This document shows positions 4,575-35,393 of a stretch of DNA of 64,000 nucleotides, piece by piece; the stretch's first letter is position 1, and every line of letters begins with the position of its first letter. The position numbers were made by a program, and so were the translations under genes. The notes under the pieces were generated by a model, which was not told where the DNA came from, made no database searches, and worked only from the letters and a program-made list of their open reading frames with translations. Location: NCBI GenBank assembly GCA_050179685.1, contig JBFXEW010000016.1, positions 45,620 to 109,619 on the forward strand, read 5' to 3'. The DNA comes from Salinivirgaceae bacterium. Its GTDB lineage: Bacteria > Bacteroidota > Bacteroidia > Bacteroidales > SZUA-534.

Positions 4575-4604
4575 TCCCTGCCACCCTGGGTGGTGGGGAT
4601 TTTT
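4575..4604 (+). terminator. Probable intrinsic terminator
   Basis: tccctgccaccc-t-gggtggtgggga stem followed by a T run, just after the GH51 stop. Confidence 0.6.
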
Positions 4605-4709
4605 AATTTTTATCATAAAACAAATACTTGGAATGAAACAGACCATAGCTTAGATTATAATTGAGTAATACAACAATTAAATCGGAGCATGTTCACAAAT
4701 AGTAAACAA

Positions 4710-5864
4710 ATGAAAAAAAGATTTATAAAATGGCTTGTTTTGCCTGCTTTGCTTTTTATCGTTTTTAGTTGCAGCAACTCAAATAAAACGGTTTTTACTG
4801 ATACGGTTGCAGCTATCGACGATGCTGCTTTTAATCAAACCATCGATGACCAGCCGGTAGCACTTTATACCCTGACTAATAATAGTGGAATGGGTATGAA
4901 GGTAACCAATTTCGGTGGGCGTGTAGTAGCACTTTGTGTTCCCGATTCCCATGGAAATCCAGTTGATGTGGTGCTGGGTTATAATACCCTGGATGAATAC
5001 GTGAATCAGCCTGAGAATTTTTTGGGAGCTGCCATTGGTCGTTATGGAAACCGGATTGGTGGTGCTCAATTCAGCATTGATGAAACGGTGTATGAGCTAA
5101 GTAAAAACGAAGGAAACAATCAGTTGCACGGTGGTGCAAAAGGTTTTTTCGATGTGGTTTGGAAAGCAAATCAGTTAAGTCAGTCGGCCATTGAATTTAC
5201 CTATCTTTCTATTGACGGAGAAGAAGGATATCCCGGAAACCTTTCGGTAAAAATGATGTACGAACTGACTCCCGAGAATGGTTTTAAAATTACCTATGAA
5301 GCAAGTACCGATAAAACAACAGTCTGCAATTTGACCCATCATTCCTATTTTAACTTGTCGGGTGAGGGCAGCGAAACTATAAATGATCATTTACTTAGCA
5401 TCCGTGCCGATGGCTTTACTCCGGTGGATAGTGTTTTAATTCCAAACGGACAAATAACTCCGGTAAACGGAACGGCTTTCGATTTTAATCAGGCCATTGC
5501 TATTGGAACCCGCGTGAATGAAGACGATGAGCAACTGGGTTATGGAGCAGGCTACGATCATAACTGGGTATTGAATAAAGAAAGTAAAGGTGTAGAACTG
5601 GTAGCTTCGCTTTATTCACCAATTAGCAAAATAAAAATGGATGTGCTTACCGACCAACCGGGTTTGCAATTTTATGGCGGTAATTTTATCGATGGTACTT
5701 TAACCGGGAAAAGTGGAAAGACTTATAAGCACCGCAGTGCTGTTTGTCTTGAAACGCAACATTTTCCCGATTCTCCAAATAAAGCAAATTTTCCATCTAC
5801 CTTATTAAAACCAGATCAGACTTATTCACATACTTGTGAATACCGGTTTTCTGTTGAAAAATAA
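4710..5864 (+). CDS. galM: Aldose 1-epimerase (mutarotase), lipoprotein; ATG at 4710 preferred over 4689
   Basis: GRYGNRI, LHGG, EGYPG, NLTHHSYFNL, GYDHNW, CLETQHFPDSPN; lipobox-like VFSC. Confidence 0.88.
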   Translation: MKKRFIKWLVLPALLFIVFSCSNSNKTVFTDTVAAIDDAAFNQTIDDQPVALYTLTNNSGMGMKVTNFGGRVVALCVPDSHGNPVDVVLGYNTLDEYVNQPENFLGAAIGRYGNRIGGAQFSIDETVYELSKNEGNNQLHGGAKGFFDVVWKANQLSQSAIEFTYLSIDGEEGYPGNLSVKMMYELTPENGFKITYEASTDKTTVCNLTHHSYFNLSGEGSETINDHLLSIRADGFTPVDSVLIPNGQITPVNGTAFDFNQAIAIGTRVNEDDEQLGYGAGYDHNWVLNKESKGVELVASLYSPISKIKMDVLTDQPGLQFYGGNFIDGTLTGKSGKTYKHRSAVCLETQHFPDSPNKANFPSTLLKPDQTYSHTCEYRFSVEK

Positions 5865-24773: not shown

Positions 24774-26693
24774 GTGGATCAATATCAGAAAATACTGACA
24801 AAATATTGGGGATATGCCAACTTCAGGCCTTTGCAGCACGACATCATCCGGTCGGTGGGCGAGGGACGTGATACCCTGGCATTAATGCCAACCGGGGGAG
24901 GAAAATCAATAACCTTTCAGGTGCCGGCTTTGGCTAAAGAGGGTATTTGCATTGTGGTTACCCCGCTTATCGCGTTGATGAAAGATCAGGTTGAAAACCT
25001 GAAAGCCCGCAAAATTAAAGCAGTTGCCATTTACTCGGGAATGACCCGGCACGAAATTGATGTGACCCTCGAAAACTGTGTCCACGATGCCAACATGAAG
25101 TTCCTGTATTGCTCGCCTGAACGTTTGGGAACTGAACTATTTCGTACGCGGGTTAGGCAGATGCATGTGAATTTGCTGGCCATCGATGAGTCGCATTGTA
25201 TTTCGCAATGGGGCTACGACTTTCGCCCATCGTACCTGAAGATTGCCGAAGTACGCCAGCTCTTGCCCGGTGTGCCGGTATTGGCGGTTACTGCAACGGC
25301 CACCTCACGCGTTATCGACGATATTCAGGAGAAACTGGGCTTTCCCGAAAAAAATGTATTCCGTAAAAGTTTTGAGCGTAAAAACCTGGTTTACATGGTT
25401 CGCGAGGTGGAAGATAAGCAGAAACACCTGATTAAAATAGCCCAATACTTTCCAGGTAGTACGGGTGTGGTTTATGTTCGCAACCGGCTTCATACCAAAG
25501 AGATATCTTTATTTTTAAATCAGCAGGGATTTTCTGCCGATTATTATCATGCGGGACTTACATCGGCAGAGCGCGATTTTAAACAAAATCAATGGAAAAA
25601 GGGAGCCATCCACATTATGGTTTCAACCAATGCCTTTGGAATGGGTATCGACAAAGCCGATGTGCGCTTTGTGGTTCATATGGATTTACCCGATACGCTG
25701 GAAGCCTATTTTCAGGAAGCCGGACGCGGGGGGCGCGATGAGAAAAAGGCTTATGCCGTTTTACTTTACCATCCGGGCGACCGCAAAAAGCTGGAGCGCC
25801 GCATCGATTCAACTTTTCCCGAAGTCGATGAGATTAAACGGGTGTACGAAGCCCTGGGTAATTTTTTTCAGTTGCCCGTGGGTGGTGGAAAGGGAATGGG
25901 CTTCGATTTCGATATATCGGCTTTTGTGAAGGCCTACAAGTTCAATATTTTGAACGTTTACAACAGCCTTAAACTGCTTCAGCAAAGCGGGTATCTCGAA
26001 TTGAGCGAAGAAGTGGACAATCCATCGCGAATAATTTTTACCGTTACCCGCGACGATTTGTACAAATACCAGGTAGCCAATGCGGCCGAAGATGCCTTTA
26101 TTAAGCTGCTGTTGCGGAGTTATTCGGGAATGTTTACCGAATACCGGCCCATCGATGAAGGCGATTTGGCACGCAAAACCAACGCAAAACCCGAAATTAT
26201 TACAGCCTTCCTGATTAAACTGGGACGCGACAAGATTATCAATTACATTCCACGGAAAAAAGTTCCCCAGATTTTTTATACCGAAGAGCGACTGCCTACA
26301 GCTTCTTTGTTATTTACCCGCGAAAAGTATCAGGACCGGAAAAAACTTTACAGTGAAAAAATCTTCGCCGTAGTTGATTATGCCACCCGAAAAAAATGCC
26401 GCTCGCAGCAGTTGTTGAACTATTTTGGTGACATGCAGGCTACCCGTTGCGGGGTTTGCGATGTTTGCACCGAACGAAACAAACTCGATTTAAGCAACAT
26501 GGAATTCGATTTGGTGGTTGAAGCTATAAAAGCAGCGCTTCGAAAACAACCCTTAAACCTGGAACAACTGGTCGATGCCATTAAACAACCCAACGAAAAA
26601 GCAGTTAAAGTAATTCAATGGCTGCTCGACAACCAAAAACTATACCGCGACGAATCCTTACTGCTGCATTGGAAAAAAACCGAAACAGAATAA
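24774..26693 (+). CDS. recQ: RecQ-family ATP-dependent DNA helicase
   Basis: MPTGGGKS, DESHCISQWGYDFRP, TATA, FGMGIDK, QEAGRGGRD, Zn motif CR...CGVCDVC. Confidence 0.93.
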   Translation: MDQYQKILTKYWGYANFRPLQHDIIRSVGEGRDTLALMPTGGGKSITFQVPALAKEGICIVVTPLIALMKDQVENLKARKIKAVAIYSGMTRHEIDVTLENCVHDANMKFLYCSPERLGTELFRTRVRQMHVNLLAIDESHCISQWGYDFRPSYLKIAEVRQLLPGVPVLAVTATATSRVIDDIQEKLGFPEKNVFRKSFERKNLVYMVREVEDKQKHLIKIAQYFPGSTGVVYVRNRLHTKEISLFLNQQGFSADYYHAGLTSAERDFKQNQWKKGAIHIMVSTNAFGMGIDKADVRFVVHMDLPDTLEAYFQEAGRGGRDEKKAYAVLLYHPGDRKKLERRIDSTFPEVDEIKRVYEALGNFFQLPVGGGKGMGFDFDISAFVKAYKFNILNVYNSLKLLQQSGYLELSEEVDNPSRIIFTVTRDDLYKYQVANAAEDAFIKLLLRSYSGMFTEYRPIDEGDLARKTNAKPEIITAFLIKLGRDKIINYIPRKKVPQIFYTEERLPTASLLFTREKYQDRKKLYSEKIFAVVDYATRKKCRSQQLLNYFGDMQATRCGVCDVCTERNKLDLSNMEFDLVVEAIKAALRKQPLNLEQLVDAIKQPNEKAVKVIQWLLDNQKLYRDESLLLHWKKTETE

Positions 26694-26947
26694 TGGTTTT
26701 TACAGCCTTTCACACTAAGGTTTCAGCCTTGCAATCCTACCGACTACCTGCTTTTAATCAGCACGGTACGGTGGAAAAGTCATTTGTTTCTTTTGGTCAC
26801 AAAAGAAAAAAGGAAGGCATAGGTTATGGAACTATGTTTTTTGTGTTTGTAATAATTTAGTAAAGCGCGTTAATCGTTGCGTCTTCATAGCTTTAAGGCA
26901 CAATAATTAATTCCCGCTCTTACGTCCTGTTTCCGTTTTTTGCCTTT

Positions 26948-27042
26948 GTCGCAATTTTAATTTGCTTTTAGTTATAGTTTTAGCATAAATGCAAGAAACA
27001 AACAACGCAACTGCGTTTAACGCCAGGGTTGTAACCAATTGT
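26948..27042 (+). repeat. attC-like site, right part (copy of 28879-28973)
   Basis: ~90 bp similarity to 28879-28973 including identical aagaaacaaacaacgcaactgcgttta; similarity ends at GTT (27028). Confidence 0.7.
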
Positions 27043-27102
27043 GGAATTCCAGAGAAATTGGACTAAGAAATAAATTTTTGTATTTTTACTTAAAAATAAG
27101 AT

Positions 27103-27291
27103 ATGGCGACAAAGGAGATAAAAGATAAGATCAATAATGTTATTGATACTATTCCGGATGACATATTAGAAGATGTGCTGGAGTATCTTAAGTCATTGAC
27201 AAATAAGTCAAAAAATAAAATAAATTTATCTCAGAATTTGAGTAAGATACTTGATGAGGATAAAAACTTGCTTGAAAGACTGGCTCAATGA
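27103..27291 (+). CDS. Putative antitoxin (62 aa)
   Basis: Small helical protein; stop overlaps the Doc start (ATGA); ends LLERLAQ. Confidence 0.7.
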   Translation: MATKEIKDKINNVIDTIPDDILEDVLEYLKSLTNKSKNKINLSQNLSKILDEDKNLLERLAQ

Positions 27292-27659
27292 TATCAACAG
27301 ATGAGGCCATTCGGATACAATCGGTTCTGATTGAAAAATTTGGCGGTACGGATGGATTACGTGACAAAAACCTGCTTGAATCTGCCTTGATGAGGCCATA
27401 TCAAACATTTGATAATAAAGACTTATACCCAACACCTTCAGAAAAAGCTGCTGCAATTATTGAGAGTGTATTGATTAACCATCCATTTATTGATGGAAAT
27501 AAAAGATTTGGATATGTTGCTATGCGCTTAACTCTAATGGATTATGGTCTGGATATACATACTAATGAGGATGATAAATACGACTTTGTGATAAAAATTG
27601 CTATTGGAGATTTCAAATTTGACCAAATTCTCAATTGGATAAATGACAAATTGAAGTAA
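27288..27659 (+). CDS. Death-on-curing (Doc/Fic) family toxin
   Basis: GG.DGLRD..LLESA..RP, KAAA, HPFIDGNKR (Doc-type Fic motif). Confidence 0.9.
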   Translation: MISTDEAIRIQSVLIEKFGGTDGLRDKNLLESALMRPYQTFDNKDLYPTPSEKAAAIIESVLINHPFIDGNKRFGYVAMRLTLMDYGLDIHTNEDDKYDFVIKIAIGDFKFDQILNWINDKLK

Positions 27660-27897
27660 GAACAACTGCCTATACTAATTAGGACGCTGAGTGTTCTGTA
27701 TTTCGGAAGCCATCGGAACAGCAATGAGTTCCCCGGGGCAATCGGGGCAGGAGACCTGTACTATTTTCTTAATACAGTTTTTGTTTTAACCCTACTCATA
27801 GTAAAAACCCTCCATTTAAGGCTTTGCTTGCCGGCCGGTAAGGCACGTTCTTTTATAAAAAAGCCAATCAAAATACCCGGCGTATCAAATTATTTCC

Positions 27898-27905
27898 TAG
27901 CTTTG
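27898..27905 (+). promoter_or_regulatory. Putative -7 promoter element upstream of cassettes 2-3
   Basis: TAGCTTTG matches TAnnTTTG; 20 nt before an A-rich-preceded ATG at 27926. Confidence 0.45.
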
Positions 27906-27925
27906 GTTAAGTAAACCAAAAAAAC

Positions 27926-28069
27926 ATGAACCCAAACACTACCTATAATACAACCAAACGTAACAGGGTGCCTATAGCATACCAATTTTGGGTAGATAAA
28001 AGAAGGTGGGCTGCGGTTATCTTGTGGTTGGCTGCAACCTTAAAAAACATCGATTTAAAAACGTATTAA
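27926..28069 (+). CDS. Putative 47-aa leader peptide spanning a cassette junction
   Basis: Own translation: MNPNTTYNTTKRNRVPIAYQFWVDKRRWAAVILWLAATLKNIDLKTY*; stops 4 nt before the ATG at 28074. Confidence 0.35.
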   Translation: MNPNTTYNTTKRNRVPIAYQFWVDKRRWAAVILWLAATLKNIDLKTY

Positions 28070-28073
28070 TGTA

Positions 28074-28826
28074 ATGATGAAAAGATTTATTGCATATTTT
28101 GATTATTTGGGATTCAAGAAATTTATAGAAAATAATGACCTAGAATATCAAAAAAGAATTATTGGAAACAATTTTCGAGATATAGAAAATGCTTTAGGTC
28201 ATGGAAAAACAAAGGAAGCCTCTAGAGGAGTAATAGCTGATTTAGAAATGTCGATTATTAATTGTATTAATTTCTCGGATACAATTGTTTTTTGGACAAA
28301 TGATGATTCGGAAGATTCACTCTTAGAAATTCTTAAAGTTGCATATCGATTTAACATGCATGCCGTTGATTTCTTTTTTCCTGCAAGAGGAGCATTGGTT
28401 TATGATGAAATAATTTATATTGACGTTAAAAAACAAAACGAAGCAGGTGGACTTTATAATATTAATTCAGTATTTGGAAAAGGACTAGTTAAAGCTCATG
28501 AAAAGGCAGAAAAACAACATTGGGCAGGTACTGTAATTGATAATTCATTTATTGAAGAACTTGCAAATAGAAACTATGAAATTGATACTTTTTTGTCTTC
28601 GTATGCTAAGAAGTTTAAAGTACCATATAAGAATGGACATGAATTACCCGATGAATATGTTCTTAATATTATTGAAGGAAAATTGACCAATGAGGGTTTG
28701 AAAAACTTTGAAAATAGAATAAAAGAAAATTTTTCTCGTCATAAAAAAACAATTGATAACCAATACATTCAAGAGAAGATTGATAATACCCTAAAATTCC
28801 TAAATAGCTTTTATAAAAATGATTGA
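28074..28826 (+). CDS. Hypothetical protein with class III nucleotidyl-cyclase-like motif pattern
   Basis: FIAYFDYLGF...FSDTIV...ARGAL...VFGKGLVKAHE parallels the FxDxxGF / GD / RxG / GxxVNxA order of adenylate/guanylate cyclases; AT-rich. Confidence 0.6.
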   Translation: MMKRFIAYFDYLGFKKFIENNDLEYQKRIIGNNFRDIENALGHGKTKEASRGVIADLEMSIINCINFSDTIVFWTNDDSEDSLLEILKVAYRFNMHAVDFFFPARGALVYDEIIYIDVKKQNEAGGLYNINSVFGKGLVKAHEKAEKQHWAGTVIDNSFIEELANRNYEIDTFLSSYAKKFKVPYKNGHELPDEYVLNIIEGKLTNEGLKNFENRIKENFSRHKKTIDNQYIQEKIDNTLKFLNSFYKND

Positions 28827-28827
28827 A

Positions 28828-28973
28828 AAGGCAGCGGCCAACCCGCGCTCAAACGTCTTGCTTGCGGCAGTTGGAAAAGTCACAATTTCAATTTACTTTT
28901 AGTTTTGAATTTTAACATAACAATAAGAAACAAACAACGCAACTGCGTTTAGCGCCAACGTTAGCGGTCATTT
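28828..28973 (+). repeat. attC-like imperfect palindrome between cassettes
   Basis: gccAAC (28837-42) ... GTTagc (28960-65); inner arms gcgct-c-aaacg (28845-55) and cgttt-agcgc (28946-55) pair with one unpaired C; AT-rich loop. Confidence 0.7.
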
Positions 28974-29005
28974 AAGAAAACATCCATGCATTAACTATAG
29001 AAAGA

Positions 29006-31018
29006 ATGAAAAAAATTGATTTCCATATTCATACAATGCAATCTATTAGTGATTCACTTTTTGATTTTAACTTGGATAAACTAAAAGAATATGTTGACAA
29101 GATGGAAATTGATTGCATTGCTATAACAAATCACAATCTATTTGACAAAGCTCAATTTCTTGATATTTGTAGCAATCTACAAATAAAAGTTTTTCCAGGC
29201 ATTGAAATTGATTTAGAAGGAGGTCATATTCTACTTATTTCTGAAAATGAAGATATAGAGGATTTTGACTCTAAATGCCGTAGAGTGAAAGGATTAATAA
29301 CTTCAGTAAACGATTCAATAACTTACGAGCAATTAATTGAGATTTTTCCTTTGCTTAATAAATATTTGTTAATTCCACATTACGATAAAAGTCCTAATCT
29401 TAAGGAAGATACATTACAAAAATTAGGAGACAATATATTTGTTGGAGAGGTTACTAGTATACGAAAATTTAAAGCATGTATAAGAGAATCAAATAAATTA
29501 GTGCCTGTTATATTTAGTGATTTTAGGTTTACAGATAAAATTTCAAATTTTCCAACAAGGCAAACATTTGTAAATGCAGGTGATAATTCACTACGTTCAA
29601 TTAAAGGTAGTCTGTTTGATAAATCGAAGGTATCACTTTCAAGAGATGATGGGAATGATTTTTTCCAAGCTACAGACGATGGTATAATATTATCAACAGG
29701 TTTAAATGTTATTATAGGAGAACGTTCAACGGGGAAAACCTATACTCTTGATAAAATTTGCAACAATTTTAGTAATGTTAAATACATCAGACAATTTTCA
29801 TTACTTCAAAATGACGAAGAAAGCTTTAAAAAACTTGTAACCACAAGACACAGCTTAGTAACAGAATCCTATCTAAAAGAATTTAAAGATGTTGTACAAG
29901 ATGTTAATCAAGTCGATTTAAAAGGGAATGAAATTAAACTGGGTAAATACATTGATTCATTGAAAAAGTTCGCCTCAGAAAGTGATAAGCTTGATACATT
30001 TTCAAAATGTAAATTGTATAATGAGACTAATTTTGAGATAAATGATTTAAGTAATTTAAAAACACTTATTAAAGCAACTGAAACTTTGATTGAAAATATT
30101 GAATACAAGACTATTGTAAATAAACACATTTCAGAAGCTTCATTGAAGGCATTAATTATCGACTTAATTAAAAAGCATAATGAACTGTATGAATCAAATT
30201 TGAAAAAATATTGGTTGAATGAACTAATAAACAATATTAAAGATTCATTGCGTTTTAGGTCAACTACAACAGCAATTGAGGACATAGATTTTTATAAGTT
30301 CAAAACTGAAAAAGTAAAAGTTGATAAATTCATGCGTTTAGCTAAAAATCTGCAAGATGAAAAAGAAATTGATAGCAAAGAAATTCGTGGATTTAAAGTA
30401 GTAGCAAGAACAAAAAAATATACTGGAGCAAGTCAACTAAAAGCAAAAAGTAAAAGTCAACTTTCTTTTAGTAATGCTTTTGATAATTATAGTAATCCAT
30501 ATAAGTTTTTAATCGCTCTTCAAGGAGTTGGTATTGAGGAAACAGAATTTTACAAATACTTTGTTGATATAGAGTATAAAACATTAAATAAACATGGATT
30601 CCCAGTTTCTGGTGGTGAACGTTCTGAGTTTAATCTGCTTCATGAAATTAATGATGCATTGAAACATGATATTTTATTAATTGATGAACCTGAATCTTCT
30701 TTTGACAATATTTTCTTGAAAAATGATGTAAATGTCTTAATAAAAGAAATTTCCAATGAAATTCCGGTTATTGTTGTAACCCATAATAATACAATTGGAG
30801 CTTCGATAAAACCTGATTATGTAGCCTATACACAGAAAAAATTAAACAATGGGGGTATTGAATATTCAGTTTTCTTTGGCCATCCAATGAGCAAACAACT
30901 TAAAAATGCAAAAGGTGAAACGATTGAGAATCTAGATATATTATTTAATTGTTTGGAGGCTGGAGAAATTGCTTATTATGAACGTAAATCACGAGCTTAT
31001 GAAATACTTAAAAATTGA
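29006..31018 (+). CDS. PHP-domain + ABC/SMC-like ATPase fusion (Ppl/TrlF-like)
   Basis: DFHIHT, ITNHN, PGIEI, HIL, IPHYD, FSD (PHP); GERSTGKT Walker A, long helical insert, VSGGERS signature, LLIDEPE Walker B, VVTHN H-loop. Confidence 0.85.
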   Translation: MKKIDFHIHTMQSISDSLFDFNLDKLKEYVDKMEIDCIAITNHNLFDKAQFLDICSNLQIKVFPGIEIDLEGGHILLISENEDIEDFDSKCRRVKGLITSVNDSITYEQLIEIFPLLNKYLLIPHYDKSPNLKEDTLQKLGDNIFVGEVTSIRKFKACIRESNKLVPVIFSDFRFTDKISNFPTRQTFVNAGDNSLRSIKGSLFDKSKVSLSRDDGNDFFQATDDGIILSTGLNVIIGERSTGKTYTLDKICNNFSNVKYIRQFSLLQNDEESFKKLVTTRHSLVTESYLKEFKDVVQDVNQVDLKGNEIKLGKYIDSLKKFASESDKLDTFSKCKLYNETNFEINDLSNLKTLIKATETLIENIEYKTIVNKHISEASLKALIIDLIKKHNELYESNLKKYWLNELINNIKDSLRFRSTTTAIEDIDFYKFKTEKVKVDKFMRLAKNLQDEKEIDSKEIRGFKVVARTKKYTGASQLKAKSKSQLSFSNAFDNYSNPYKFLIALQGVGIEETEFYKYFVDIEYKTLNKHGFPVSGGERSEFNLLHEINDALKHDILLIDEPESSFDNIFLKNDVNVLIKEISNEIPVIVVTHNNTIGASIKPDYVAYTQKKLNNGGIEYSVFFGHPMSKQLKNAKGETIENLDILFNCLEAGEIAYYERKSRAYEILKN

Positions 31019-31295
31019 AGACAATAAAGGTTATTTTCTAAAGGATAAAACAAATCCCGATGAATGGACTGAAATTGACCAAATTGAAAAAAATGACTTA
31101 ATGAAATTATTAGAGTCTGCATCAGAACCTGATTTTGAAATGGATGCTTATAATGAAAGTCTGATTCAACATAAAGCACATCAAATTATATATAAAAACC
31201 TTACAGAGAAGTTTGATACATTTCTATCAAATAAGAGTAGATTTATTGATGAGTCTGAATCTATTTATAAAACAGCTTTAGAGAAATATCAATAA
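30999..31295 (+). CDS. Small acidic hypothetical protein (98 aa from ATG 30999)
   Basis: MKYLKIEDNKGYF...; overlaps the ATPase 3' end by 20 nt; same AT-rich composition. Confidence 0.75.
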   Translation: MKYLKIEDNKGYFLKDKTNPDEWTEIDQIEKNDLMKLLESASEPDFEMDAYNESLIQHKAHQIIYKNLTEKFDTFLSNKSRFIDESESIYKTALEKYQ

Positions 31296-31314
31296 AAAAA
31301 CAGAGAAGAAACTT

Positions 31315-32286
31315 ATGGAAAAAATACTTGCATTTGTTGATTTGCTAGGTTTTAGTCAAATGGTGAATACTGATGAAAATAAAGCTAGAATTATTCTGAA
31401 TGACTTTTACAATATTGCTTTCACTGAAATCAAAGGCAAGCCAAATGTAAATGGACATTTGTTTTCTGATTCACTATTAGCATATTCAAGTTCTAGAGAA
31501 GACTTGATAAATTGTCTTGCCGCTATTTATCAAAAATGCCTTTTGAAAAATGACTCTTACAGCGAGTTGTCAAAGTTTTTTCTTTTACCTCGTGGTGCAA
31601 TGAGTGTAGGTATTGTGAATGTTGAAGACAGGCAAACAGCTCCAAACCTTACTAAAGATTTTATTGTGAGTCAAGCATTAGTTCATTCAGCAAAACTGGA
31701 AGCGCAAATCAAGGGAAGTCGCTTGCTTGTTGCTGCCAAAAATGAAGAACAACAACAAATGCAACTTGATTGGAATAGAAATATTAGATATGGTTTGTAT
31801 CAGGACGATGCTCTTACATTCCTTGAAAATTATAAATACAAAGACGTTTTATGGTTTTCATCATTTGACGATGGAAATAACCAACGGGATAACCTCATAA
31901 ACCTAATTGACATCGCAATAAAATTAGTCAAAGACAATTCAAGAAATGAAAAAGTTTTATTACAACATATTTGGACATTGAGAATCGGTCTTTTATCGTA
32001 TTCTAAATATTTAGGCCAAGAAAGTGACCCTGTTTTAAATAGAATTATAAGAGAGTTTAAGGCAGACCAATATTGGCTATTGTGGATGACACTAATTGAA
32101 ATGATTGTAAATAGCACAACTGAATGGAAATATGCAGCAAGTAAAAAAATTGTTGATTTTTACAAAAAAACAAGTTTGAAAAAAGGTTGGAGTAACTTAA
32201 TCGAAGAGTTGAACAAGCCAGGAGAACAATATGCATTAAAATGTTTTGAGAAATTTATAGATGAAATGTCAATTCAAACAATATAA
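31315..32286 (+). CDS. Nucleotidyl-cyclase-like N-terminal domain plus helical C-terminal region
   Basis: ILAFVDLLGF...LFSDSLL...LPRGAMSVG...SQALVHSAKLE; 19 nt downstream of the small gene. Confidence 0.6.
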   Translation: MEKILAFVDLLGFSQMVNTDENKARIILNDFYNIAFTEIKGKPNVNGHLFSDSLLAYSSSREDLINCLAAIYQKCLLKNDSYSELSKFFLLPRGAMSVGIVNVEDRQTAPNLTKDFIVSQALVHSAKLEAQIKGSRLLVAAKNEEQQQMQLDWNRNIRYGLYQDDALTFLENYKYKDVLWFSSFDDGNNQRDNLINLIDIAIKLVKDNSRNEKVLLQHIWTLRIGLLSYSKYLGQESDPVLNRIIREFKADQYWLLWMTLIEMIVNSTTEWKYAASKKIVDFYKKTSLKKGWSNLIEELNKPGEQYALKCFEKFIDEMSIQTI

Positions 32287-32287
32287 A

Positions 32288-32360
32288 AAACGAACCACTA
32301 ACACTTACCCTCCAATAAAGCCTTGCTTGTATACGCTTTGCATTGGAGGGTAGGTTGAAC
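32288..32360 (+). repeat. attC-like hairpin closing the three-gene cassette
   Basis: accactAAC, then taccctccaat/aaagc pairing with gcttt/attggagggta, then GTTGAAC (GTTRRRY) at 32354. Confidence 0.65.
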
Positions 32361-32522
32361 TAAACATGGCCTGCTTACAACTACCTTCCGATTAGTTGTT
32401 TGAGCATAGTGTTTCCAATCGGTTTTTTTCAAGAGCTCCCGAGGCGATTTTTCAGGGTTTTCATAATCCAAGGTTTGGTATAATACGGGAATGCGTCGGC
32501 GTTAGTAGGAATTCTAGTTAGC

Positions 32523-33052
32523 ACGGTGCGGTGGGCATGCAAAACCAGGTGTGGAATTGTCGATAAGGGTAAAGTGGCACCAGTGTTTCAGGACGAAACC
32601 AAACCTTCACGACCTTGAGTTGGGGAACTTGCAAAGCGCAGGGAAGTTCTTATCTCTAAACTCCACCAACTTTAGTCACTCAAGTTACTCCAAATACTCC
32701 AACCACAAGCCCCAGCGGGGCGTAAGCTTGGTAGCCCCGGGTTTCAACCCGGGGGATAAGGAGTATGAAAGAATAAGCGGTGCAAGCAGCAAAACAACCA
32801 TAAAAAACAGGCCATTTATGCACCGCAAAAAGCGGCAGGCCGCAATTAAAACCATCAATACAAACAAAAATATTCATTAACCATGTCCTCACCTTACGCA
32901 ATCTAAAATTGCCAATCTGAAATCGTTAATCGCTTATCTGAAATCATTAACCACAAAAACCTCATGAAATGTCTTGTGTCTTGAGTCTTAAGTCTAGCGT
33001 CTAAACGCTAACCCCCCATGTTCATCGAACAGGCCTCTAACCCCCATCAACT
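32523..33052. repeat. Long direct repeat copy A (non-coding, REP-like hairpins)
   Basis: Colinear with 34420-35138, e.g. aaaaccaggtgtggaattgtcgataagggtaaag and ttgcaaagcgcagggaagttcttatctctaaactccaccaactttagtcac identical. Confidence 0.9.
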
Positions 33053-33073
33053 CATCGCCACTCTACTCCGGAC

Positions 33074-33107
33074 AAAAAAAAATGCGCCTTAGTCCTTAGC
33101 GCATTTT
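33074..33107 (-). terminator. Intrinsic terminator for the minus-strand 230-aa gene
   Basis: aaaaaaaaatgcgc...gcgcatttt just past the stop codon. Confidence 0.65.
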
Positions 33108-33130
33108 CGTTTCGTTTCCCGCTAGTTGAT

Positions 33131-33823
33131 TTATTCTTCATTGGCAATTTCCTCTTCTTCTTTTTCATAGGCTCCCCGTAAATCAACAATTACTCGGGCA
33201 GCCTTATACTCATTGTAAAACACCGGCTCCTGGTCCTTTATAACCAGCATCAGTTTATCCATTTGCTCACGCAGCAGGGTATTTATTTCCTTAAAAAGCT
33301 CCTGCAGGCGCGAGGTTGCTGTACTGCGGGCAACAATTGCGGTGCGTGGTTTGGCTACCAGAGCGGCAAAATCATCAATTTCTTTCCGCAGTCCGCTGGT
33401 AGTCTCCGGTAGCAATCCATAAGGAGCCAGGGCTTCAGCATCCAGCCCACTGGCAATTTGGTGTATCCGGTTGCAACGATTCAGTAAACTGTTGTCGCCT
33501 ATCGTTTTTAAATACGAAGGCGACACTTTGACCTCTTGTTGAAGTTCCAGATTATTTTGGTCCACAGCATACACATAGATAGACGCTGCAACACGCAGGG
33601 TAATTTCTATCATTTCAGCTTCTTCTTTTTGTTTTTGAAGGGTAGTACCAGTTGACTTTCCTTCCTGAATTTGCTGAACTTCTTTTAGTTCTTCAAGCAG
33701 TGCCATAAATTTGCTTACAACAGCTGCAATTGCCGGCACTAAGGCCAGCTTAGCTCCATATTTGGTCAATATATTGGCTACGGCCAGATACGAAGACAAA
33801 TGATTATTTTGTACACGATTCAT
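33131..33823 (-). CDS. Hypothetical alpha-helical protein (230 aa)
   Basis: Clean ATG ORF with AT-rich leader and terminator; helical; ends FYNEYKAARVIVD plus acidic tail; resembles an uncharacterised Bacteroidota family from memory. Confidence 0.8.
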   Translation of the reverse strand: MNRVQNNHLSSYLAVANILTKYGAKLALVPAIAAVVSKFMALLEELKEVQQIQEGKSTGTTLQKQKEEAEMIEITLRVAASIYVYAVDQNNLELQQEVKVSPSYLKTIGDNSLLNRCNRIHQIASGLDAEALAPYGLLPETTSGLRKEIDDFAALVAKPRTAIVARSTATSRLQELFKEINTLLREQMDKLMLVIKDQEPVFYNEYKAARVIVDLRGAYEKEEEEIANEE

Positions 33824-33978
33824 AATATAATGGTTTTAGTTAGGGGAAACGCAGACTAAATTAAACCAATTCCTATAAATTTGCAAGAGGCAAAAACATG
33901 TTTCTGATCACATACTTGCTTGACAGTTAAATTGCTAACTAAGGTTAGGACCGATGCAAAGTAACCGTCCCTGGTGTT

Positions 33979-34335
33979 GTACCCGGCAACTATTTTGATG
34001 CACCCCATAACCTTAGCCTTGTTCCCGGCAACATCAAGGGTGTGCCAGCCAACATTAGCACCGTACCCGGCAACATCATTCGCATATTAGGCAACATTAG
34101 CATCGTACCAGCAAACATTAGCGTCGTGCCCGGTAACATCATTGGCATACTAGCCAACATTAGCATCGTACTAGCCAACACCAGGGGTGTACTAGCAAAC
34201 ATTAGCACTGTACTAGACAACATCATTGGCGTACTGGGCAACATTAGCATCGTACTAGGCAACATCAGGGGTGTACTAGCCAACATTAGCACCGTACTGG
34301 GCAACATCACGGGTGTGCCGTACAACTTCAGCTCA
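33979..34335. repeat. Tandem array of ~17 degenerate 21-bp units, consensus approx gtactaggcAACattagcatc
   Basis: Units read in register from 33979 to 34335 without indels; AAC invariant. Confidence 0.92.
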
Positions 34336-34419
34336 CACCTTTGGAGCTTGACCGGTTTACTGAGACCGATCCTTTTTTTGAAAGCTGTAATCACGATTAT
34401 TTATTGGAATTTAATTCGT

Positions 34420-35138
34420 ACGGTGCGGTGGGCACGCAAAACCAGGTGTGGAATTGTCGATAAGGGTAAAGCGGCTGTACCCATTCAGAACGAAACCGTA
34501 CATTCACAACCTTGAGTTGGGGTCTTTGCAAAGCGCAGGGAAGTTCTTATCTCTAAACTCCACCAACTTTAGTCACGCAAATTACTCCAAATACTCCAAC
34601 CACAAACCCCGAAGGGGTGTAATAATAATAGCCCCGGGTGTGAACCCGGGGAATACAACCACACAAGAAAGAGCGGTGCAAGCACCACAACAACCATAAA
34701 ATCAGGCCATCCATGCACCGCAAAAGGTGACGGGCCGCAATTAAAACCGTTTATATAAACAAAAATCTTCATTAACCAAGTCCTCACCTTACGCAATCTA
34801 AAATTGCCAATCTGAAATTAATGTCGTTTAGTTAAAGAAATTCACCCCTATAATCCCCTCAAGGGGATACCTGCAACGATGGAACAGAGCTGGTCCTTCC
34901 GCCGCGGCGGAGAGGTGCCCGCCTTGGCGGGCGGAGAGTGAAGTCTGCTTAACTAAACGACATTGAATCTGAAATCGTTAATCGCTTATCTGAAATCATT
35001 AACCACAAACTCCTCACAAAATGTCTAGCGTCTTAAGTCTAATATCTAACTTACCTGCCACACAGGCAGGAGTCTCGTGTCTTTAGTCATTATTCTAACC
35101 CGTCTATCCATCAGACAGGCCTCTAAACTCCATCAACT
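34420..35138. repeat. Long direct repeat copy B (interrupted by a MITE)
   Basis: Colinear with 32523-33052 apart from the insertion at 34819-34975. Confidence 0.9.
34819..34965. mobile_element. 147-bp MITE with IS4-like terminal inverted repeats and 10-bp target duplication
   Basis: TIR taatgtcgtttagttaa / ttaactaaacgacattg; aatctgaaat at 34809-18 and 34966-75; empty site with one aatctgaaat at 32914-23. Confidence 0.88.
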
Positions 35139-35393
35139 TTAGTCACTTTATGAACTTAAGCCACTTTAAGTACTCATCTTAACACGCACCGTCTAGGGTG
35201 TAACACGCGCAATGCATGGAGTGACACCAAATAAGTTTACTGTATTATTTCCGTCAGCACACGGTGTTGAAAAGGCTTTTTCGATAAAAATAAGGACATT
35301 ATAGCTTTTTAGCTGCTCAATGTCATAAACTACAGATAAATCATTCGTTGCTTAATAAGGATAGGTTTATTACTTTTGCCCATATTTTTATTT

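Follow-up and report, generated by a model that had tools for sequence, protein, structure and literature searches.

A probable integron-like gene-cassette array in a Salinivirgaceae chromosome and its link to a Xer/IntI-like recombinase

A stretch of 64,000 nt of the Salinivirgaceae bacterium assembly GCA_050179685.1 (contig JBFXEW010000016.1, forward strand, 45,620–109,619; hereafter the window) was analysed. At 26912–32362 of the window, three low-GC co-oriented gene cassettes are separated by elements that are bounded by AAC and GTT. This region is probably a cassette array of an integron-like site-specific recombination system, of which the recombinase is apparently Xer/IntI-like and not IntI. 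Five kinds of observation carry this assignment: the anatomy of cassettes and elements, a family-wide rule for cassette ends, differences between relatives that are located at the elements, linkage to one recombinase family, and a strand bias in folding. The genome of the window (G000) is a 50-contig draft of 4.56 Mb with 99.6% completeness, and the window sits on its contig C16.

The GC content is 0.25–0.36 across 26900–32300 versus 0.42–0.49 in the flanks, and every gene in this region is on the plus strand. An initial annotation of the stretch had described three AT-rich, co-oriented gene units here. It interpreted them as integron-like cassettes whose attC-like sites have deviant cores and which are mobilised by a recombinase encoded elsewhere. 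All of the sequence strings that it quoted were found in place, and the units had the composition and orientation described. The observation is confirmed, and the interpretation is supported by the results below.

Cassette ends and attC-like elements

Across loci, the cassettes start with GTT-N7-A(T/A)(T/A) and end with (A/T)AC-N7'-AAC, in which N7' is the reverse complement of N7. In the window's genome, 4 of 21 element 3' ends had an exact N7' plus AAC at most 7 kb further downstream, versus 1 of 418 non-self pairings. The N7 arms themselves vary among cassettes: when arms of different cassettes were compared, 0/240 matched at 7/7 positions and 5/240 at 6/7, indicating that there is no conserved end sequence of the XerC/XerD type. 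When 16 cassettes from four named loci were tabulated by position, position 11 of the outer stem was A in 16/16 starts and faced C in 14/16 ends; these bases are mismatched on the top strand, and their counterparts on the bottom strand form a G.T wobble. Because these cassettes were selected by N7 complementarity, only the positions flanking N7 count as independent.

The ends of the window's own units had been described as near reverse complements. The start of unit 2 at 28027 is complementary to 28828–28842 at 12/16 positions. The start of unit 3 at 28960 (GTTAGCGGTCATT) pairs with 32288–32302 (AACGAACCACTAAC) over the first 13 positions with one mismatch and one 1-nt indel. Unit 1 has a degenerate end, as claimed. 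Unit 2 (two mismatches) and unit 3 are of the kind with a weaker partner. The claim that such complementarity exceeds chance failed for the window alone, in which runner-up matches within 7 kb reached 10–11/16, and held in the element-anchored family-wide test. The complementarity in the window is significant only because it is positioned at the element boundaries and follows the family-wide rule.

The junction sequences belong to repeat families. An iterative nhmmer search seeded with the junction at 28827–28975 was run against the whole 4.56-Mb genome and found 30 copies of the J2 element, which is 116 nt long in the window. The further copies of the site, in co-oriented clusters, bear out the initial annotation. 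The aligned copies span from AAC to GTT, and the sequences past either end are unrelated. Their consensus is ..YYAAC-CCa-CGCT-C-AAACG, a conserved middle, AACGCAACTGCGTTTAGCGCCAAC and GTT, followed by a purine. In every GTT-bearing copy of J2 or J1, the base 3' of GTT is A or G. The first J2 copy of the window has a degenerate 5' triplet, AAT at 26909–26911. The initial annotation had reported that two junctions share about 90 bp ending at GTT. The end at GTT was reproduced, while the shared length measured about 116 nt, with 71% identity between 26915–26973 and 28846–28904 and 85% between 26978–27030 and 28910–28962.

The J1 element (27781–28026) ends with GCGGTTATCTTGTG directly ahead of GTT, and GTT stands where predicted in 11 of the 14 copies that reach the 3' end. 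J3a has five genome copies, co-oriented in arrays. In 13/13 clusters, the copies of J1, J2, J3a and of two further modules, A and B, lie on one strand per cluster, and 77 of 80 low-GC non-overlapped open reading frames (ORFs) across 13 array loci are co-oriented with the elements. With at least four elements in 26912–32362 and no tyrosine recombinase match on C16, the region would class as a cluster of attC sites lacking an integrase (CALIN) if the elements are counted as attC-like.

The elements are 40–650 nt long, and their layout is common to the lineages although the sequences differ. From AAC, 2–5 unpaired bases are followed by a 7–13-bp stem with one bulge or mismatch and by a variable middle of about 20–600 nt. 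Then come the returning stem arm, 4–7 unpaired bases and the GTT of the next cassette. When the presumed circular form of a cassette is folded, an outer stem of 9 bp is separated by an asymmetric internal loop from an inner stem, also of 9 bp, which is capped by a terminal structure; this resembles the attC layout of R box, unpaired spacer, L box and variable loop. An attC-like architecture, with AAC...GTT triplets around imperfect inverted repeats and a variable loop, was found in the 30 J2 copies and at junctions in Carboxylicivirga, Pontibacter and two relatives (G001 and G004). The bulged hairpin described for the J2 junction (arms gcgct-c-aaacg and cgttt-agcgc) is also present, mostly paired in the plus-strand minimum-energy fold, although its stability is no better than that of shuffled sequence. 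For J3a, the DNA fold has a z value of −3.4 on both strands.

The two strands of the elements do not fold equally. The coding-strand mismatches are mostly A.C, which equals G.T on the other strand, and therefore the bottom strand usually folds more stably. The bottom strand was the more stable in 9/11 sites, and the minimum-energy folds of 15 sites, 4 of which were delimited so that the AAC or GTT triplet was left out on one side or on both, contained 39 G.T pairs on the bottom strand versus 11 on the top strand. J2 carries one bulged C on the top strand (G on the bottom), and the other elements carry A.C mismatches instead. This strand bias is independent of cassette selection, and the bottom-strand advantage argues against sense-strand terminators. 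The bias by itself would fit antisense RNA as well as single-stranded DNA; given the recombination context, it is likelier that the bottom-strand folding acts as DNA.

The same locus differs among relatives, and the differences lie at the elements. The recQ gene upstream of the array is 88% identical in G004 and 89% in G005, and the similarity of both relatives to the window ends at 26726–26906. In G004, recQ is followed by a lone J2-like element and then by sequence similar to the window from 35243 onward, with 8.2 kb gone. In G005, recQ is followed by a J1-type element and a different low-GC gene, whose unit begins with GTTGTGCCTCATAAT and ends with ATTACGAGGCACAAC (14/15 complementary). None of the 40 relatives searched yielded the coding DNA of cassette 2 or 3. 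J1 and J2 matches in these relatives stop no more than 5 nt from GTT, and the J1 matches of G004 and G005 stop at 28025–28033. The boundaries are also kept by a homologous gene: the Doc unit of cassette 1 has a 68% identical homologue in a genome of a different family (G031), with the clean ends GTT-GGAGGCA-ATT and AAC-AGCCTCC-AAC and with a hairpin element and the next GTT downstream. Contigs from other samples are in modest agreement with the element boundaries: three records of Logan run X2 match J2 and diverge immediately past 28962, one record of run X3 matches J1 to 28029 and is unlike beyond, and contigs in runs X3 and X4 carry the Doc unit nearly alone.

The positions of the features are collected in Table 1. 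Cassette 1 encodes a 62-aa putative antitoxin (27103–27291), which gave sub-threshold matches only, and a 123-aa Doc/Fic toxin (27288–27659; Pfam Fic/DOC, 1.9e-16). Cassette 3 encodes PDC-M49A (PHP + ATPase, 29006–31018), PDC-M49B (31000–31295) and a 323-aa protein (31315–32286). PDC-M49A matched its PADLOC model over the full length at 2e-295 and PDC-M49B at 3.1e-36, and with the two genes adjacent they count as the PADLOC candidate defence system PDC-M49. No Pfam or PADLOC family was matched by the 323-aa protein or by the 250-aa protein of cassette 2.

Table 1. Features of the variable region and its left flank, in window coordinates
Feature	Position	Strand	Support
recQ-family helicase, conserved left flank of the variable site	24774–26693	+	Pfam DEAD, Helicase_C, RecQ_Zn_bind
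Repeat module A	26777–26905	+	BLAST copies on C3, C5, C17, C26, C30
J2-family attC-like element, copy 1	26912–27027	+	nhmmer match C16:72532-72648, alignment
Cassette 1 (putative antitoxin and Doc/Fic toxin)	27028–27675	+	start GTT-GTAACCA-ATT
J1-family long attC-like element	27676–28026	+	conserved part 27781–28026; about 20 BLAST copies
Cassette 2 (250-aa protein, gene 28074–28826)	28027–28842	+	ends GTTGGCTGCAACC... / ...GGCAGCGGCCAAC abut elements
J2-family attC-like element, copy 2	28843–28959	+	AAC-CC-GCGCT-C-AAACG ... CGTTT-AGCGC-CAAC-GTT; best nhmmer match
Cassette 3 (PDC-M49 candidate defence system and one gene)	28960–32302	+	PADLOC
J3a short hairpin element	32303–32362	+	13-bp stem (12/13 complementary), 25-nt loop
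Remaining variable island	32363–35242	.	absent from G004; repeats

Module A lies immediately 5' of J2 at five loci (C3, C5, C16, C26 and C30), is truncated on C17 and C30, is always co-oriented with J2, and is also present in the empty site of G004. The motif TTTTAATCAGCACGGTACGGTGG opens module B at 26752–26774, 32512–32534 and 34409–34431. B and then A precede J2 at three array loci (C3, C26 and C30), and on C17 B is followed by partial A copies with no J2. Module B may serve as a promoter or a small RNA, or may itself be a cassette without an ORF.

In the island at 32363–35242, modules B, J3c and J3d occur in two copies, together with an ORF of 230 aa and a tandem array whose unit is 21 nt long. 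The two-copy repeat is about 480–640 bp long and 86–89% identical (32515–32996 and 34412–35048), and the ORF (33131–33823, minus strand, no family) and the tandem array (33967–34344) lie between its copies. An Rfam scan of the window gave a sole match, Acido-Lenti-1 at 34605–34651 on the minus strand, outside the cassette region.

A Xer/IntI-like recombinase and the arrays downstream of it

No match in the window's genome passed the TIGR02249 (integron integrase) cut-off of 265 bits, so that a canonical IntI is absent from it, as the initial annotation had stated for the array. The best match was a single-copy 482-aa Xer/IntI-like tyrosine recombinase (P0001) on contig C44, which scored 190.7 bits in two stretches. 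This gene, like its homologues in other genomes, heads arrays of the same kind, in line with the earlier suggestion of a recombinase encoded elsewhere. Its catalytic half scored 191 bits against IntI, 189 against XerA, 178 against XerC and 170 against XerD, and its best solved-structure relatives are XerA structures. In comparison with IntI4 of Vibrio cholerae (PDB 2a3v), chain residues about 200–241, the IntI insertion region, have no counterpart.

AlphaFold models (pLDDT 85–87) place two beta-beta-alpha-beta-beta-alpha-beta copies at residues 5–74 and 108–176, ahead of the usual core-binding and catalytic domains. Foldseek found nothing for the N-terminal half at E <= 0.001. VIA-align gave its best Z of 6.0 to the UvsW N-domain (root-mean-square deviation 2.3, 63 aligned) and then 5.9 and 5.8 to XPB damage-recognition domains. 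Because these Z values lie in the common range of VIA-align, an N-terminal domain that binds distorted DNA is a tentative lead.

At 10 of the 11 loci examined (G000:C44:3224-3604 at L023; also L065, L066, L067, L069, L070, L072, L073, L074 and L076), a divergent gene immediately upstream of the recombinase encodes a conserved Zn-ribbon protein of 117–126 aa, of no known family, with an N-terminal CxxC...CxxxC. This gene also adjoins all 6 order-level full-length recombinase homologues. A second copy is at G000:C44:13927-14280. Of 201 genomes of the order, 66 have members of the Zn-ribbon family, several copies of which adjoin shorter recombinase homologues. A predicted complex of the recombinase and the Zn-ribbon protein scored 0.33, against 0.00 for the best control, with at least 94% of contacts agreeing between runs and a partner pLDDT of at least 79. 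In the calibration of scores up to 0.60, 7 of 80 solved complexes attained this mark, as did 2 of 110 mismatched pairs. The prediction gives weak support for binding between the two proteins.

Downstream of the recombinase on C44, and on the same strand, are an MNT/HEPN toxin-antitoxin cassette, a J1-type element, an ORF-less cassette with the ends GTTGTAATTT...AAATTACAAC, and J2 at the contig end. The orthologues in G004 and G001 are followed by co-oriented arrays that obey the same end rule. Compared with C44, the G004 array has one extra cassette and element, placed exactly at a GTT.

Full-length homologues, 40–90% identical, are numerous in Marinilabiliales and related groups, where they are annotated merely as 'tyrosine-type recombinase/integrase' or XerD. 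In Carboxylicivirga linearis FB218, six consecutive one-ORF cassettes follow the recombinase, four of them with an exact N7. In Pontibacter oryzae KIRAN there are five cassettes, with 52–54-nt hairpin elements between two pairs, and arrays are likewise found in P. diazotrophicus and in an uncultured Bacteroidales contig. Clear end pairs were detected at 7 of 13 full-length loci with at least 500 nt of downstream sequence.

Shorter homologues were scanned at 30 loci (Flavobacteriales, Cytophagales, a Desulfitobacterium and a Bacillota metagenome-assembled genome (MAG), among others). By the strict rule, at least one end pair was found downstream at 27 of the 30. In total, 99 pairs were found in 247 kb downstream versus 7 same-strand and 6 opposite-strand pairs in 300 kb upstream; these are not counts of cassettes, since some starts pair with two ends. 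Ten of the shorter homologues scored 197–224 bits against TIGR02249, all below the cut-off, and 6 of these 10 passed NF040815 ('site-specific tyrosine recombinase/integron integrase'). Outside Bacteroidota, 8 strict pairs were found downstream at L144 (Desulfitobacterium sp. Sab5) and 5 at L120 (the Bacillota MAG). The system extends far beyond the window.

The cargo of the arrays includes ParDE, TacA with a GNAT acetyltransferase, MNT/HEPN, Fic, SIR2, PDC-M49 and a CAT-like gene. The CAT cassette encodes a 210-aa protein (Pfam CAT, chloramphenicol acetyltransferase, 3e-30) at 4580–5212, minus strand, of L153 (G000:C5:123500-130500). Enolase, an ABC-2 transporter pair and YLATT are further cargo. 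At the heads of the Cytophagales and Carboxylicivirga arrays, a small hairpin and then ACAG..TA stand ahead of the first GTT. Many recombinase homologues lie 4–300 nt from a contig end on the 3' side (L025–L030, L056, L057 and L060). A tendency of short-read assemblies to break at the repeated downstream elements would account for this, and draft genomes would therefore under-report arrays.

Competing explanations and known systems

Several observations weigh against a cassette array of this kind. In the window, the 3' end of cassette 1 is decayed, the J2 and J3a elements are without a bottom-strand advantage, and the J2 fold has z values of −0.33 (plus strand) and +0.67 (minus strand) against shuffled sequences. 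In the genome, the other 17 of the 21 element ends have degenerate partners, none, or are terminal. A scan that was not anchored on elements was weak (7 exact low-GC pairs versus 2 and 1 in controls), which is why the element-anchored test was adopted; strict exact pairs without the GC filter numbered 16 versus 4 and 5 in controls. The stem strength in the table of 16 cassettes is partly built in by the way they were picked. The recombinase is linked to the window array by shared element families and not by adjacency. No excision product, circle or rearrangement was found in public runs, which were examined as assembled contigs only. The joints listed for these runs have short sides and fall in repeats, so that they were left out of the evidence, and the small word shares in runs X3–X12 were not drawn on for habitat.

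Two further points concern the arrays next to the recombinase. By the simple rule, 6 of the 13 full-length loci had no pair; three of these have degenerate pairs by eye, and the rest are cut by contig ends or unresolved. In addition, the recombinase-proximal junction does not fit a simple crossover at the 3' GTT of an element. In G005, compared with G000, the first cassette is absent and the 3' 118 nt of its element are kept, and G006 compared with G001 is alike. The retained 3' part points either to a second crossover point or to an attI-like site with a 3' half like that of J1-type elements. The junction sites are within the first 200 nt past the recombinase at L054 (G005) and L059 (G006).

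The same cassette anatomy might be recombined as double-stranded DNA, as in Xer/dif. The recombinase would then bind duplex sites where the elements end, and the long-range complementarity would be a by-product. The catalytic half of the recombinase resembles XerA, XerC and XerD as closely as it resembles IntI, with XerA structures as its best solved relatives. It is without the insertion that in IntI reads extrahelical bases, and the window J2 does not fold better than shuffled sequence. All of these fit duplex recombination. The N7 arms, on the other hand, vary by cassette yet stay self-complementary, which fits recognition of a shape and not of a duplex sequence, and the bottom-strand bias seen both in fold stability and in the G.T counts would be unexpected of a duplex site. 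Duplex recombination is therefore judged unlikely. It is very improbable that the array is an ordinary integron remnant, a CALIN with true attC sites whose canonical IntI was lost or lies in unassembled DNA. Such a remnant would show the same AAC/GTT triplets, bulged inner stem, co-oriented cassettes and toxin-antitoxin or defence cargo, and the genome is a draft of 50 contigs; but nothing passed the TIGR02249 cut-off in a genome that is almost complete, arrays in many genomes of several orders begin directly after a non-IntI recombinase on the same strand, only 6 pairs were in the divergent position, and the ten homologues scored were below the cut-off.

Interspersed intergenic repeats unrelated to gene movement are the explanation to which we give the least credence. 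These would be repeats like miniature inverted-repeat transposable elements (MITEs) or repetitive extragenic palindromes (REPs), or shared promoter or terminator modules, with the cassette look arising from a horizontally acquired island. Families B, A, J3c and J3d do fill intergenic DNA here and elsewhere, some of them not co-oriented, and the conserved middle of J2 could carry a promoter. Left unexplained by such repeats are the gene-specific inverted ends that bracket each ORF, the whole gene-plus-element differences at GTT between relatives, and the linkage to one recombinase family, and the weaker sense-strand hairpins are contrary to terminators. A self-contained MITE/REP repeat that inserts independently of neighbouring genes and in either orientation is contradicted by the co-orientation of the elements in all of the clusters, by that of the ORFs, and by the gene-specific ends.

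The integron-like assignment is consistent with many properties of sedentary integrons and CALINs. As in these, the cassettes are co-oriented and mostly single-gene, and each has an AAC...GTT imperfect palindrome with a bulged or mismatched inner stem and a variable loop. It is the start of the cassette itself that restores the complementarity, and arrays also occur away from the recombinase. The element sequence is conserved within a lineage, as in the Vibrio repeats, and toxin-antitoxin and defence genes, which are the typical cargo of sedentary integrons, are carried. The differences are mainly in the recombinase, which is without the IntI insertion, scores below the cut-off of the IntI model and has an N-terminal extension (the two repeats, in the 480-aa form). 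In canonical integrons, integrase and array diverge from an intervening region that contains attI and Pc; here the recombinase is upstream on the strand of the cassettes, as the 99 downstream versus 6 divergent pairs at the 30 loci indicate. The outer stem has 9 bp and a conserved A.C mismatch, compared with 7 bp in the R box of a canonical attC, the two spacers measure 2–3 nt and 4–7 nt, and the Zn-ribbon gene is a conserved divergent neighbour. Because the IntI insertion and the divergent layout were not found, the system was not filed as a canonical integron.

XerA, XerC/D and the dif modules of Acinetobacter plasmids offer another comparison. The core-binding and catalytic domains are nearest to XerA, and dif modules are genes bounded by inverted recombination sites, like the cassettes here. 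Unlike in dif modules, the sites here do not share a conserved sequence of 28 bp, the arms change from cassette to cassette with only their complementarity kept, and the arrays are chromosomal, co-oriented and headed by a recombinase gene. The proteins match the IntI model best or second best, which likens them to the 'integron-like' subgroup of simple tyrosine recombinases, in which the catalytic-domain insertion is not fully conserved (Smyshlyaev et al. 2021, PMC8138268). The available part of that paper ties no insertion-less members to cassette arrays.

Reports on integrons in this phylum differ. Bacteroidetes were described as having only In0 elements plus one complete integron, in Salinibacter (PMC9024848), and Bacteroidota were named among the clades earlier found without integrons (bioRxiv 2024.07.02.601686) and listed among the phyla with detected integrons (PMC8618304; bioRxiv 2022.02.06.479319). 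A literature search, with supplementary tables and subscription journals outside its scope, turned up no account that links cassette arrays to this recombinase family.

Proposed mechanism and significance

In the mechanism that we propose, a cassette would be excised when the recombinase recombines two elements. In the circularised cassette, its own start and end would form the 9-bp outer stem beside the inner stem, so that the circle would carry a complete site. The recombinase would recognise the folded bottom strand of this site as single-stranded DNA, and strand exchange would take place at or beside G/TT. The circles may re-insert at the head of an array beside the recombinase or at any resident element. 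The recombinase on C44 would act in trans on the window array, which may have grown from a solitary element downstream of recQ.

On a broader scale, we lean towards a second integron lineage. It would use a XerA/IntI-like recombinase without the IntI insertion, and the N-terminal structure-specific DNA-binding repeats, perhaps with the Zn-ribbon partner, would recognise the folded bottom-strand sites. Such a lineage would be widespread in Bacteroidia, Flavobacteriia and Cytophagia and reach some Bacillota, would represent either an ancestor-like form or an independent invention, and would hold a large untapped pool of defence and toxin-antitoxin cassettes.

Integrons, the textbook device by which genes are captured and shuffled, are defined by IntI and have been reported to be almost missing from Bacteroidota (PMC9024848; bioRxiv 2024.07.02.601686). 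If a second lineage exists, integron surveys keyed on IntI may overlook a large part of the gene flow through cassettes, and the origin of integrons from Xer-like enzymes would become testable with living intermediates. Compact and precisely bounded defence and toxin-antitoxin cassettes could be mined with the simple pattern GTT-N7-A ... AC-N7'-AAC. Structural work and tool-making would also gain a new subject in a recombinase that reads DNA shape and has no IntI insertion.

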